A stretch of 64,000 nt of DNA from Octopus vulgaris. Its lineage: Eukaryota. The notes beneath the pieces were generated by a model that saw nothing but the letters and a program-made list of their open reading frames with translations, made no database searches and was not told the DNA's origin. The position numbers and the translations under genes were made by a program. Shown in pieces: positions 1,859 through 62,388 of this stretch. Numbering within the stretch: the stretch's first letter is position 1; each line of letters starts with the position of its first letter. Where the stretch lies: positions 24,614,001-24,678,000 of the forward strand of contig OX597834.1 of assembly GCA_951406725.2 (NCBI GenBank), read 5' to 3'.

Positions 1859-2320
1859 AAGCCTTCCACATTGCAGTGTACACCGCCATAATGCGTATTT
1901 GTGCAGTGTGTATAAACAACATTGCTTCCATAAATACAATTTCTAAATATATCACACACATACATGCATACAGACATGCACACACACACATACACGTGCA
2001 CATGCACACGCATGCGCTCGCACACACACACACACATACACGCACACACGCACGCATACACATACACACATGCACACACCATTGCATAGTTCTGTTGTGA
2101 AATTATTTGTCAGATGTAAAAATGTTTGGCCGACATCATCTCAGTGTCGAATATGGAATCCAAATGCTTTAAGCTCTCGTTTTACAGAAACATCCTGCAA
2201 TTCCCAAAGGAACATTTGAATGTTTCATGGAAGATTAAAAATAAAAAAAATGATTTTGATACTATCTTTGCCTCACAATTTATTGGCTCGTATATCACTC
2301 ACTAGTCATCTACCTCAGCT

Positions 2321-2605
<285 letters not shown>

Positions 2606-2719
2606 GCTTTTGTTCCAATTTGTACGGAAAAGATGGATGGATATCATTATTATGAGTGAGTGAGTATTCGTGCGTGCATGTACGCGCGCGCGTGTTTTGT
2701 GCGCATAGTTGAATAGACA

Positions 2720-3984
2720 GTAAGAAACCAGACACAGTAAATTGTCGCCATTTTATATTTTTTAATTTCTTGCATGCGCATTGTTTGTTTTTGATTTTGT
2801 CGACTACACAGTGTAGTAGGGTCAGTTGCGTACAGCCTGTGAGAAAAACAGCACCATGACGCAATTCTCTCCGCCAGAAATTTGGAAACGACATGCCGTA
2901 CTGATTGATATTCGCGCCGGAATCTCCAATACGAACATTTCAGAGTATTTGGATGTCAATCTGAGGACAGTGCAGAGGATTCGGAAACAGTTGGATGAGC
3001 CTAATGGTGATTATAAAGGTACGGCAGCTCGAAAAACTCACTGTGCTCTTTCTGATAAGAAAAGAATTCCTGAATTTGTTGGTAAGACCCAGGCCATGAT
3101 TGACAACGATCCCTTGAAGTCAATCAGGTCCATCGCCAGGGCCATGAGAGCGTCTGAGTTTATTATTAGGCAGATAGTGCATGAAAACATTCGGTATTCC
3201 TCATAGAAGATGAGAAAGGGCGAATTTTTATCCCAAGCCATCAAGGACAAGAGGAAAGACCACACTTTTCAACAAACCCAAGCGTCCCCTCCAACCGAAC
3301 ATGGTTTGGTTTTTCTCAATCGAGAAAAGATTCTGCCGTTGGTTTGCCGTGTCCCCAAAACATGCACCGAGAGTGATAAAAATCAAACATCCAGGCAACA
3401 TTATGGTGTTTGGAGTGAACACTATTGATGACGACTTTATGCCTCTATTCATCTTCCCACGCGGCCTGAGACTGAACACGGAGGCTTACATCAAGTGCCT
3501 GGAGGAAGTAGTGCTGCCGTAAGTCAAAAGGGTGGCTGCTGGAAGACTCCATGTCTGGCAACATGACTCTGCACCATGCTACAGAGGCTGGAGAGCCCTG
3601 TCATGGCTGTCAGACAATTTCTCCGACCACATCACTCCTAACACCTGGCCACCTAACTCCCCAGGCTGTAACCCCCTTGATTATTATGTGTAGGGCACAG
3701 TTGAGCGAGGGACCAACAAAGCTCTTTGTAACACCAAAGATGAACTGCAGGCAAGGATTCACCGACTTAAACAAAACAAGGAAACCGTCCGGAAGAGATG
3801 CAGAAGATTCTGAAGGCGTCTGGAGGCCGTGGTTAAAGCCAATGGCGATTTTGTTGAATAAATATACTCTTTAGTATTTCAAAATACTTTTATGTAATCT
3901 TGGTAAATATATCTGCTAAAATGAGACGTCACTCTTATTTTCATTTTTGCGTAATTTGGATGAAAATATATTCACTGCACCCTG
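2720..3984 (+). mobile_element. Tc1/mariner superfamily DD37D (maT) transposon, transposase pseudogene ~2856-3860
   Basis: N-terminal HTH (ISEYLDVNLRTVQRIRKQL), KHPGNIMVFGV, and WQHDSAPCYRGWRALSWLSDNFSDHITPNTWPPNSPGCNPLDYY with exactly 37 residues between the last two Asp. Stops and frameshifts present; right end GCACCCTG|TA. Left TIR not found. Confidence 0.9.
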
Positions 3985-11239: not shown

Positions 11240-13970
<2,731 letters not shown>

Positions 13971-22996: not shown

Positions 22997-23084
22997 CATG
23001 TATGTATTTATGAATATATTTGTATATATCCATATATAAATTATTTTGCGATTGGGGTAAGTTTTCATCACTATCTGGCGATTA

Positions 23085-23131
23085 ACACACGCTGAGGACG
23101 GGTAACCACCCAGAAACTCGAGTCCGTGTGT
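23085..23131 (+). ncRNA. Type I hammerhead ribozyme, near-canonical, with palindromic stem III
   Basis: ACACACG-CTGAGGA-c GGGT aacc ACCC a-GAAA-CTCGAG-TC-CGTGTGT. Perfect 7-bp stem I, CUGANGA and GAAA cores, 4-bp stem II (C.A mismatch at its base), self-complementary ACUCGAGU stem III, predicted cleavage after GUC at 23124. Confidence 0.85.
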
Positions 23132-23255
23132 ATCACGTAAGGATAGGGATGGGAGCGATGACCTCCCCACGCAAATTCTAATTGGACACAGGATGTGTCT
23201 CGTTAGCCAGCTGGAAGAGATATCTTCCTGGGGCTATAAACGTCAGTATATATGT
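23085..23255 (+). mobile_element. HHR-headed short interspersed element
   Basis: Sequence after the ribozyme (...AGCCAGCTGGAAGAGATATCTTCCTGGGGCTATAAACGTCAGTA) is homologous to the reverse copy at ~39730-39885. Confidence 0.65.
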
Positions 23256-23349
23256 TACAATTCCGTATTGCTACTGTTTACATCTCGCCCAGAGATTTGA
23301 TATAACCTATATATTTATATGTGTGTGAGTATGTGTGTGTGCGCGCGTG

Positions 23350-24345
23350 TATAGGGCGGTGCAGAGAGGACGACTGTTTTTGAAAAATTCACAAAATCAT
23401 TAATTTTAGCTGCAAGCAAATTTTGTTGACAGTGTGTTCGTATTTATTTAGCATTTGTCAAAATGAAGTGTGGAAAACAACATCCATCATTTGGTGCCCG
23501 TTTTCATTGATGCATTTCTGAAGGCGTTCATGATAGCTGGCGCCCACTCTCTCCAGCATTGCTCTGTCGATTTGGGCGATTTCCACGCGAATAACTTCCT
23601 TCAAATCGTCCAATGTATAGGGCTTATGCGCATACGCACGTGCCATGAAGTTTCCCTACAAGAAATAATAACACATGGATAAGGCGGCGAGCTGGCAGAA
23701 TCGTTAGCACGCCGGGCGAAATGCGTAGCCGTATTTCGTCTGCCGTTACGTTCTGAGTTCAAATTCCGCCCAGGTCCACTTTGCCTTTCATCCTTTCGGG
23801 GTCGATGAGTTAAGTACCAGTTGCGCACTGGGGTCTATGTAATCGACTTAATCCGTTTGTCTGTCCTTTTTTGTCTCCTCTATGTTTAGCCCCTTGTGGG
23901 TAATAAAGAAACGGAAATAATAACACATGGACAAATCAGGGGACCGAAAGGGCCAAAGAATATCAGAAAACTTGGAAATGAGGCGGTCACCGAAGAGAGG
24001 GCGAAGAACGTCTATTGATGCTCTGCATGTGTGGGCTGTCGCCTCATCTGCTAAAACCATACATGTCGAATAGGCTCACCTTTCCGTCGTAATTCGGGCA
24101 TAAAGAAGTTTATCATCTCGATGTAACGCTCGGAGTTCACAGTAACAACATTTCCAATATAGCCTTCAAAAAAGTAAGGAATAATTATGGCAGCTTTTCC
24201 AACAGCACACCAGACCGTTACTTTTGTGCTGTGCGGTGGTCTTTCGTGCAGTTCTCACGGATTTTCAAGAGCCCATTAACGACAGTTCTGTTGATTTACC
24301 ATGCCATTGAGATGAAAGTGAGCCTCATCACACATTAAGCAATGA
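23350..24345 (-). mobile_element. Tc1/mariner DD41D (rosa-like) transposon remnant interrupted by a SINE
   Basis: DEAHFHLNGMVNQQNCR-like start, HSTKVTVWCA, D(EATAH)..WPFRSPDLSMC(Y)YF with 41-residue spacing (last Asp mutated), C-terminal RLQKCINENGHQM. Confidence 0.88.
23680..23913 (+). mobile_element. SINE family A, full length, with 18-bp target-site duplication
   Basis: GAAATAATAACACATGGA at 23662-23679 and 23914-23931 flanks GGCGGCGAGCTGGCAGAATCGTTAGC...TAATAAAGAAAC. Confidence 0.95.
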
Positions 24346-26100: not shown

Positions 26101-26478
26101 TATATGTATATGTAATATATGCGGTGCCCCAGCATGGCCACGACCTTAGGGCTGATAGATATAAAAGAATATCTTGAAAGTTGTGGTTTCTTTGGTTTGT
26201 TTGTTCCCAAACAACACTTACTTTAGTCCTGTTGACACCGCCGGATTGAATGGTACTGCCCAGGCGTCGAAACCATAATTATATCCTTGGGGCAGCTGAT
26301 GATGGAGGTATGTTCCATTGTTGGTATTGCTGTTTTTGCATGTGGAATAGTATTATAATATATCCTTTTGATATACATATACATACATACATGCACGCGC
26401 GCGCGCGCACACACACACACACATACATATATATATACATACATACATACATATATATATACATACATACATACATAC

Positions 26479-39522: not shown

Positions 39523-39729
39523 GTCAAGTATAACACCATGGTCAGACACAGGTCTTTTGACATTGTGACTGCCAACGTTTAGAGTCTAGGTTCTCAAACT
39601 TTTTGGGCTACCGCCCTTCTCATGGGTACATAATACCCTCAACGCCCCCACCCCTATTTTTATATATAAGTAAATATTTTATCGTGAAGCATTTTTGCCA
39701 CTTAAATGTGGTTAACCCCTAAGGGTGGA

Positions 39730-39885
39730 TGCTACTGTATCTTGTAGCCCCAGGAGGACACCTCCTCCAGTTGGCTATTGACACACTTTCTGTGCCCTAT
39801 CAGTATTTGCAAAGGGAAGCAATCCTTCCCGTCTTCAACCTATTATACACATGGACTCGAGTTTCTGGGTATTGATTGTGTGTGA
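39730..39885 (-). mobile_element. Second copy of the HHR-headed element (5' half of ribozyme lost)
   Basis: Minus: CACACAC aatcaat ACCCAGAAACTCGAGTCCATGTGTAT...AGCCAACTGGAGGAGGTGTCCTCCTGGGGCTACAAG. Confidence 0.7.
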
Positions 39886-40219
39886 CAACCACGAGTTTAT
39901 CTCTTTATTATAGGCACAAGGCCTGAATTCAGAGAGGACATACACAAACATGCGGGAACAAAAAAACATATGAAAGAATGAATTACAATGAATTAAATTA
40001 TAATGAATATGAGACGGTTTTCTCGGTCCCGCTCTGAGACGAAACCGCGATTACATTTTTACAATTAAACGTTCTTACAGTCTTTTTTCTTTTTTCCTTT
40101 TTTAATTTGTTCTTTTTCTTAGACTTTTGTTTTTTGTATCGTTTTTTTTTTCTTTTTCTTTATACATTTTAACAGTCTATTTTCCTCTTTTTTTATGAAG
40201 TATAAATTTTACTTATTTT

Positions 40220-61101: not shown

Positions 61102-61332
61102 CATTTCTTTACTACCCACAAGGGGCTAAACACAGAGGGGACAAGCAAGGACAGACAAACGGATTAAGTCGATTATATCGACCCCAATGCGTAACTGGTA
61201 CTTAATTTATCGACCCCGAAAGGATGAAAGGCAAAGTCGACCTCGGCGGAATTTGAACTCACAACGTAACGGCAGACGAAATACTGCTAAGCATTTCGCC
61301 CGGCGTGCTAACGATTCTGCCAGCTCGCCGCC
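61102..61332 (-). mobile_element. SINE family A, full length, 16-18-bp TSD
   Basis: CCTATCTGTATTAATACT at 61084-61101 and 61331-61348; another partial copy at ~61400-61530. Confidence 0.94.
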
Positions 61333-61564
61333 TATCTGTATTAATACTGCCTCTGTCACACACATATATATGGTTGGTTATCGGATTTTCACGATCTGTT
61401 ACAGGGCTCAAGGCTAGTATTTTTGGAGGTTAAGAGACAAGCCGATTGCATCGACCCCAGTACTCGACTGGTACTTGTTTTATCGACTCCAAATGAACGA
61501 CTACCAAAGCTGACCTCGGCGAAATTTGAACTATGTATAATAGATCATGCGATCTTCTATCCTT

Positions 61565-61703: not shown

Positions 61704-62382
61704 TGATAAATGCGGTAAAGAAATAAGTGGAATACTTACCTATACACATGGAAGAAGCGAACACTAAGTCATGAGCACAACTAAGTACCCCAAATACGTG
61801 CTTATAGTGATAAATTACATGGTTATAGACGTTGTGTCCATTTTCGGCATATTTTGGCATTAGAATTTTTTTCTTTTGCACTTACTTATAAATTGTTTAT
61901 AAATTTAACCTTTAAAGGTATTTTTTAATATGCTGGCCATTGATAGAATTTTTTTCGAAAATTTTTTTCCTTAATTAGATGTTAATTTAATAGTGTTCAC
62001 TTCCGGACTCTCGCACTTTACGAGAGTTTTTCGGTTCGAATCGCACGTGTCTCGAGGTGTGCTAGAGAGTTTCTATTTTGGATACATTTGGGTTACTTAG
62101 TTGTGCTCATGACTTAGTGTTCGCTTCTTCCATGAGTATAGGTAAGTATTCCACTTATTTCTTTACCGCATTTATCACTGATGAAGGGAAGGTTCTTATG
62201 AACTAACTCTGAAATCGGGTCCGATATGGTAATAACAGGATTTTTTAAAGAAATTTCTGTTAGCCTTCTTCGAAATACGTGCTTGTAGTGATAAATTACA
62301 TGGTTATTGACGTTGTGTCCATTTTCGGCAAATTTTGGCATTAGAATTTTTTTCTTTTGCCCTTACTTATAAATTATTTATA
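61704..62382 (+). mobile_element. ORF-less hammerhead-containing retroelement (retrozyme / non-autonomous Penelope-type)
   Basis: Direct repeats 61792-61901 and 62273-62382 (period 481 nt); 61704-61795 is the reverse complement of 62086-62177; HHR at 62172-62232; ends in (TA)n. Confidence 0.8.
62172..62232 (+). ncRNA. Type I hammerhead ribozyme, all core nucleotides intact
   Basis: TTATCA-CTGATGA-AGGG aa GGTTC ttat GAACT aa CTCT-GAAA-TCG ggtc CGA-TA-TGGTAA. 6-bp stem I, extended stem II, 4-5-bp stem III, predicted cleavage after AUA at 62226. Confidence 0.87.
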
Positions 62383-62388
62383 TATATA

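Follow-up and report, generated by a model that had tools for sequence, protein, structure and literature searches.

What kind of genetic unit carries a hammerhead ribozyme motif that lies between microsatellites of the octopus genome? The locus in question is part of a stretch of 64,000 nucleotides of Octopus vulgaris DNA (contig OX597834.1, positions 24,614,001 to 24,678,000; hereafter the window, numbered from its first letter), for which a preliminary description had proposed a short interspersed family headed by a hammerhead instead of a tRNA promoter.

The motif itself is real. On the plus strand at 23085–23131, motif reading recovers every part of the near-textbook hammerhead that had been reported, namely stem I of 7 perfect pairs (23085–23091/23125–23131), the core elements CUGAGGA (23092–23098) and GAAA (23113–23116), and a GUC triplet with predicted cleavage 3′ of C17 (C23124), that is, between 23124 and 23125 according to the hammerhead consensus. 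Helix II has 4 bp (23100–23103/23108–23111) and an AACC loop, and the C23099·A23112 mismatch beneath it is the one departure from an otherwise canonical type I hammerhead with an intact core. Helix III and loop 3 consist of an 8-nt palindrome (23116–23123), which in a two-strand fold could pair between two copies; the stem III had been called loopless, a term that has to be amended, as this copy folded as a monomer has 2 pairs and a UCGA tetraloop. A descriptor requiring at least 6 pairs in stem I and at least 4 in helix II, with a mismatch permitted at the first helix II pair, matched the window twice (at 23085–23131 and at 62172) and none of 300 block-wise dinucleotide shuffles; a looser descriptor matched in 1 of 300. 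An Rfam scan of 23030–23300 produced no hammerhead match up to an E value of 10, focused Rfam scans returned chance matches only, and the 150 listed among the 340 matches of the whole-window Rfam scan are miRNA models on microsatellites. Motif scans of viral, metagenome, and prokaryote collections gave 0 matches in each.

The second descriptor match falls in a separate PLE-like arrangement (PLE, Penelope-like element) at 61704–62388, comprising a 92-nt inverted repeat (97.8%; 61704–61795/62086–62177) and a 116-nt direct repeat (94%). Its hammerhead-like motif (62172–62232) is a different one, in which the site is AUA, helix II is long, and helix III has 5 bp. The inverted copy breaks off where the core begins, and Rfam has no match to the motif. 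The hammerhead repeat at 23085 had been held to be unrelated in sequence to this element, and the best E value of 0.27 agrees.

The repeat around the hammerhead had been delimited as 23085–23255, which proved too narrow. In the contig alignment, family homology spans 23042–23304 of this copy (copy 1, plus strand), a solitary and nearly whole unit between TA/TG microsatellite flanks, and ~44 nt are absent from it, including a segment of ~38 nt present in other copies, the site of which lies between 23248 and 23249. The full unit amounts to 263 + 38 + 6 nt, or ~307 nt, of which copy 1 retains 263, and the hammerhead, which caps a long stem, begins 43 nt into the unit and not at its head. Copy 2, on the minus strand at 39695–39895, was delimited by sequence comparison with copy 1 and is, as noted previously, a diverged relative that has kept the body (74% over 132 nt at 39870–39742, E = 7e-19) and lost CUGANGA; the 5′ strand of helix II is missing as well. 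It starts upstream of the core and reaches at least 39695, retaining the 38-nt segment, a motif of which lies at 39695–39711 and was also matched in 4 of 100 shuffles. No third copy was found in the window with nhmmer. Since copy 1 stands alone and carries the 38-nt deletion, and copy 2 has lost half the core, both are likely dead ends. Neither begins at the cleavage site, and copy 1 shows no target-site duplication at its ends, the longest word common to its two flanks being an AT-rich 8-mer off the ends. The only open reading frame overlapping the unit is an antisense one derived from a microsatellite, so that the unit is non-coding, and inspection by eye of the frames of at least 100 aa revealed no PLE-like frame beside either of these two loci. 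Elsewhere in the window, two broken frames resemble a Tc1/mariner transposase (2820–3522, plus strand) and a LINE restriction-like endonuclease (11818–12192, minus strand); a homologue search with the mariner-like fragment returned nothing at E 1e-20.

To place the unit in a family, we used public contigs from 4 of 24 runs, aligned to 23031–23330 at 80% likeness, which give neither RNA ends nor strand. The repeat-family status proposed earlier is amply borne out, with 1,756, 2,007, and 1,830 contigs in runs X1, X2, and X10 from 3 organisms (A, B, and D). A further run, X7, contributed 117 contigs; its RNA nature is a guess, and it has no bearing on expression. The ratio of summed ribozyme depth to the depth of single long contigs is ~2,300–3,100, which is not a copy number and is therefore read only as many, likely thousands. 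Most aligned contigs are less than 95% alike to copy 1, and several subfamilies extend across the 3 organisms. The body hairpin at 23201–23240 has the highest summed contig depth, ~3 times that of the ribozyme in X1, and this excess suggests that it may be common to further subfamilies with a ribozyme region less than 80% alike. Several variants make up a larger share of X7 than of X1, which bears the same organism label (for example 23096, 79% versus 46%; 23107, 83% versus 56%); if X7 is RNA, a subfamily bias is a possible explanation, the contigs being few.

Joints within contigs define the arrangement of the units. Among the 15 of 60 joints listed, on which all joint counts rest, position 23304 is followed, after 6 letters, by 23042 in 1 contig each of X1 and X2 and in 3 contigs of X10; other joints leading back into the unit connect 23304 to 23065 (1 and 2 contigs) and 23249 to 23042 (1 contig). 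Together with the segment lengths, these joints indicate a unit of ~307 nt that is able to stand head to tail. Tandem joints are scarce, and their depth is that of a single locus. In X1, depth reaches ~20,000 at 23291–23300 as against 1,600 at 23041–23050, and most contigs covering the 3′ end do not continue into 23042. In X10, 24 contigs pass 23304 into other sequence (agreement 0.62), and in X1, 15 contigs share other sequence before 23042 that by eye resembles a divergent version of the unit's 3′ end; both sequences could belong to a longer element. Of the 7 opposite-strand joints listed, 5 must be 5′-to-5′, an orientation typical of inverted copies in PLE insertions (PMC8557442). These inverted joints map close to the arms of the long stem, and the hairpin may accordingly guide them.

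The subfamilies differ at positions that avoid the core of the predicted ribozyme. We considered 38 places, drawn from 40 listed of 47 variable places after 2 single-contig rows at the deletion had been dropped. Of these, 12 belong to the 47-nt ribozyme, none of them to its 12 core positions (p ≈ 0.016, for the listed places); the variation falls on N7, on stem pairs, on 3 places of loop 2, and on the inner pair of the palindrome (23118 changed in 5% to 23%, 23121 in 25% to 44%). Several changes match across a stem: the U23074–A23143 pair of copy 1 is G–C in the family (84% to 96% and 94% to 95% of depth, unphased), 23091 and 23125 change at similar rates (6% to 17% and 10% to 18%, unphased), which CpG decay could feed, and a change at 23129 that is confined to X10 (17%) is matched by the letter at 23087 in an X10 loose end (by eye, unphased). 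Conservation of the CUGANGA core and signs of stem covariation, which the preliminary description had named as decisive, are thus both present in the family. Set against the predicted fold of copy 1, 21 of the 38 changes are at unpaired places, 11 keep a pair, and 6 break one.

As to the mismatch beneath helix II, it had been expected that most copies would carry a T at 23099, closing the helix; in the 4 runs the share of T by depth is only 10%, 15%, 20%, and 10%, and the C·A is consequently the family norm. The pair at 10.1/11.1 is strongly conserved in hammerheads (PMC3088659), and C10.1·A11.1 departs from it. A U·U occupies this place in other natural hammerheads (PMC3088659) and in axolotl HHR_Amex2, which showed 22% cleavage as a monomer and much more as a dimer (PMC7229834). 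We also considered A-to-I editing of A23112 as a means of closing the C·A and set it aside: A>G changes of at least 10% occur in X7 at 3 places, all elsewhere, and helix II is short, although rare variants are lost in contigs.

Predicted folding sets the ribozyme in a strongly structured unit. The hammerhead is borne on a stem I extension with arms at 23045–23084 and 23132–23175, giving a long stem of ~40 pairs across 23045–23175 (z = −4.5 for 23042–23180), and 2 body hairpins (23184–23238) are predicted in both window copies; the whole unit has a GC content of 45% and a folding z of −3.2, with 0 of 200 shuffles as good. For the monomer at 23058–23160, the hammerhead fold (−31.3 kcal/mol) is 6.2 kcal/mol less stable than a competing fold (−37.5 kcal/mol) that pairs CUGAG with the palindrome; in copies with U at N7, a common variant, this competitor would be weaker. 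The double hammerhead reaches −79.1 kcal/mol, compared with −75.0 kcal/mol for 2 free monomers and −81.5 kcal/mol for the free two-strand fold, in models that credit neither the core nor loop 1–loop 2 contacts. These modeled energies favor dimer action for copy 1, a plausible mode. Invertebrate hammerheads with 2 pairs and a tetraloop often cleave as monomers (PMC7761336), and in a Xenopus study 1 of 9 predicted dimers cleaved (bioRxiv 10.64898/2026.07.22.740005).

Taken together, these observations point to a multi-copy, non-coding repeat of ~307 nt that is a non-LTR retrozyme, predicted to self-cleave and likely moved by PLE enzymes, a reading to which we assign a probability of roughly two in three. 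The unit shows several traits of such elements, with a canonical type I hammerhead of intact core in a self-paired, non-coding unit within 150 to 450 nt and with GC under 50%, and its head-to-tail arrangement is seen in the 23304-to-23042 joint of at least 5 contigs from 3 runs, the window copies being solitary. An active retrozyme has been defined by at least 2 consecutive units, each with a complete hammerhead (Li et al. 2026), and solo monomers of retrozymes and an origin from pLTRs, the terminal repeats of PLEs, have been described (bioRxiv 10.64898/2026.07.22.740005). By analogy with the coral, mussel, and axolotl retrozymes (PMC7229834), read-through transcription of head-to-tail units would be followed by cleavage after C17 (23124) in each unit, aided by pairing of 2 palindromic helices III; the long stem I would keep the ends of the resulting unit-length RNA next to each other, a host ligase would close this RNA into a circle, and a PLE reverse transcriptase/GIY-YIG protein would then reverse-transcribe it at (TA)n tracts, yielding monomers, partial tandems, and inverted copies. 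The copy ends at 23042 and 23304 do not coincide with the cleavage site, and they agree better with a constant priming position on a template that is circular or tandem than with a 5′ end made by the ribozyme. Counting against a retrozyme are the few tandem joints, the solitary window copies, the far greater depth of the 3′ end than of the 5′ end, the 6 pair-breaking changes among the 17 listed at paired places, the C10.1·A11.1 departure, and the more stable competing monomer fold.

The genome does carry PLEs, as indicated by a plus-strand match at 26176–26373 to the 3′ end of Naiad_Obim (PMC8557442 supplement; ~13 differences in ~200 nt by eye). This Naiad copy is 5′-truncated, ends at the consensus end base before a TA tract, and has a CUGAUGA half-core. 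Four octopus PLE families, including Naiad and Hydra, prefer (TA)n (PMC8557442), and copy 1 lies between TA/TG tracts, which abound in this genome. The repeat might be the pLTR, that is, the 3′ terminal repeat, of an autonomous PLE, its copies being 5′-truncated insertions. The hammerheads of PLEs sit in pLTRs (PMC4209133), and such an origin would accommodate the TA-rich flanks, the abrupt 3′ boundary near 23304 in contrast to a gradually thinning 5′ side, the inverted 5′-truncated copies inferred from 5 of the 7 listed opposite-strand joints, and the common unexplained sequence before 23042 in 15 X1 contigs. The last letters of the unit (TTTGATAT) are also those of the Naiad copy at 26373, a likeness of 8 letters noticed post hoc. 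We nevertheless regard this reading as unlikely, though far from negligible: an identical 23304-to-23042 joint recurs in 3 organisms, the X1 loose end by eye resembles the unit's own 3′ end, and neither window copy has a PLE-like frame among those of at least 100 aa inspected by eye. Metazoan PLE hammerheads, moreover, have a helix II of 6 to 8 bp and a helix I of 2 to 5 bp (PMC4209133), as opposed to 4 bp and 7 bp plus the extension here, and the published Hydra-1_Obim hammerhead differs, and a 12-letter core word had 0 matches in the PMC8557442 supplement, where line breaks could hide one. Retrozymes and the pLTRs of autonomous PLEs have themselves been viewed as ends of one continuum (bioRxiv 10.64898/2026.07.22.740005).

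The interspersed element headed by a hammerhead that had first been proposed fares worse. Dispersed solitary copies would suit a SINE with a ribozyme-made 5′ end, or a SINE transcribed from an RNA polymerase III promoter of its own, such as the Schistosoma elements that combine promoter and hammerhead (PMC6765202). Homology, however, begins 43 nt before the motif, in a part that pairs with the body, so that the ribozyme is internal to a ~307-nt unit, head-to-tail joints exist, and neither copy starts at 23125. We found no tRNA head or ordered Pol III boxes in the unit; copy 1 has neither an A box nor a B box on the sense strand, whereas a control SINE has both in order, and the A-box-like 11-mers of copy 2 are matches so loose as to be expected by chance. 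A hammerhead-bearing SINE of either sort is therefore improbable. Two similar tRNA-type SINE copies do occur in the window, at 23686–23912 (plus strand) and ~61109–61333 (minus strand), the first with A- and B-box-like motifs in order; it resembles an octopus SINE. The family could lastly be a relic, all of its templates now carrying a non-cleaving hammerhead and the family spreading, or having spread, without ribozyme action, as the C·A in 80% to 90% of depth, the competing fold, and the divergence of most contigs (less than 95% alike to copy 1) might suggest. This we consider very improbable, because the core is spared by the subfamily changes, which affect N7, loop 2, and sites where pairing is maintained, and because axolotl HHR_Amex2 tolerates a mismatch at the same place (PMC7229834).

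A more far-reaching version of the retrozyme reading, which we regard as speculative and rather doubtful, is that of an ancient family present throughout octopuses and numbering thousands of "PLE-SINEs," most of them solitary, in which a hammerhead weakened by a fixed C·A and caught in an off-fold as a monomer would cleave only when the palindrome pairs 2 transcripts, giving rise to abundant circular RNA in octopus tissues that Rfam scans miss.

Type I hammerheads in short animal repeats are already described, together with solo monomers of such repeats and their link to PLEs, as are hammerhead-bearing short repeats without a tRNA head (retrozymes and Schistosoma SM-alpha). We found no cephalopod or octopus retrozyme or hammerhead family in the literature searched, although the supplements of PMC7229834 and of the preprint may list cases; the word "ribozyme" is absent from the available text and supplement of the 2026 O. 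vulgaris repeat annotation (PMC13282606), and the giant squid genome paper gives 235 Rfam hammerhead matches without context (PMC6962438). A retrozyme at this locus would extend these elements to cephalopods. The family offers an invertebrate test of retrozymes as non-autonomous derivatives of Penelope elements, an idea that only in Xenopus has so far been examined by sequence, and it provides a naturally occurring hammerhead with C10.1·A11.1 that goes undetected by Rfam.

The closest known systems are the metazoan non-LTR retrozymes (PMC7229834; bioRxiv 10.64898/2026.07.22.740005), which likewise have a type I hammerhead in a self-paired, non-coding unit of 150 to 450 nt with GC under 50%, head-to-tail units beside dispersed monomers, and PLEs in the same genome; the octopus family differs in its rare-looking tandems, in the C·A at the base of helix II, and in a cephalopod host outside those described in the available parts of these sources. 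The "canonical" metazoan type I hammerhead has a helix I of 6 bp, a helix II of 4 bp, and a short helix III with a palindromic loop (PMC4209133), a build that the octopus ribozyme fits. Axolotl HHR_Amex2 (PMC7229834), likened here by its description and not by its sequence, likewise combines a 2-bp helix III capped by a tetraloop with a mismatch at the foot of helix II, which is U·U there and C·A in octopus (U–A in 10% to 20%). The hammerheads of PLE pLTRs (PMC4209133, PMC8557442) share the type I topology, the palindromic helix III, and the extra nucleotide after A9, and PLEs share the inverted 5′-truncated copies and (TA)n flanks (PMC8557442), whereas the octopus unit departs from the PLE minimal type in its long helix I, 4-bp helix II, and 307-nt self-joined unit. 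Schistosoma SM-alpha and Sj-alpha (PMC6765202) are likewise short type I hammerhead repeats occurring as monomers and multimers; unlike these, the octopus unit has no ordered Pol III A and B boxes. Against this background, the octopus repeat is likely a new animal retrozyme and not a new kind of element.
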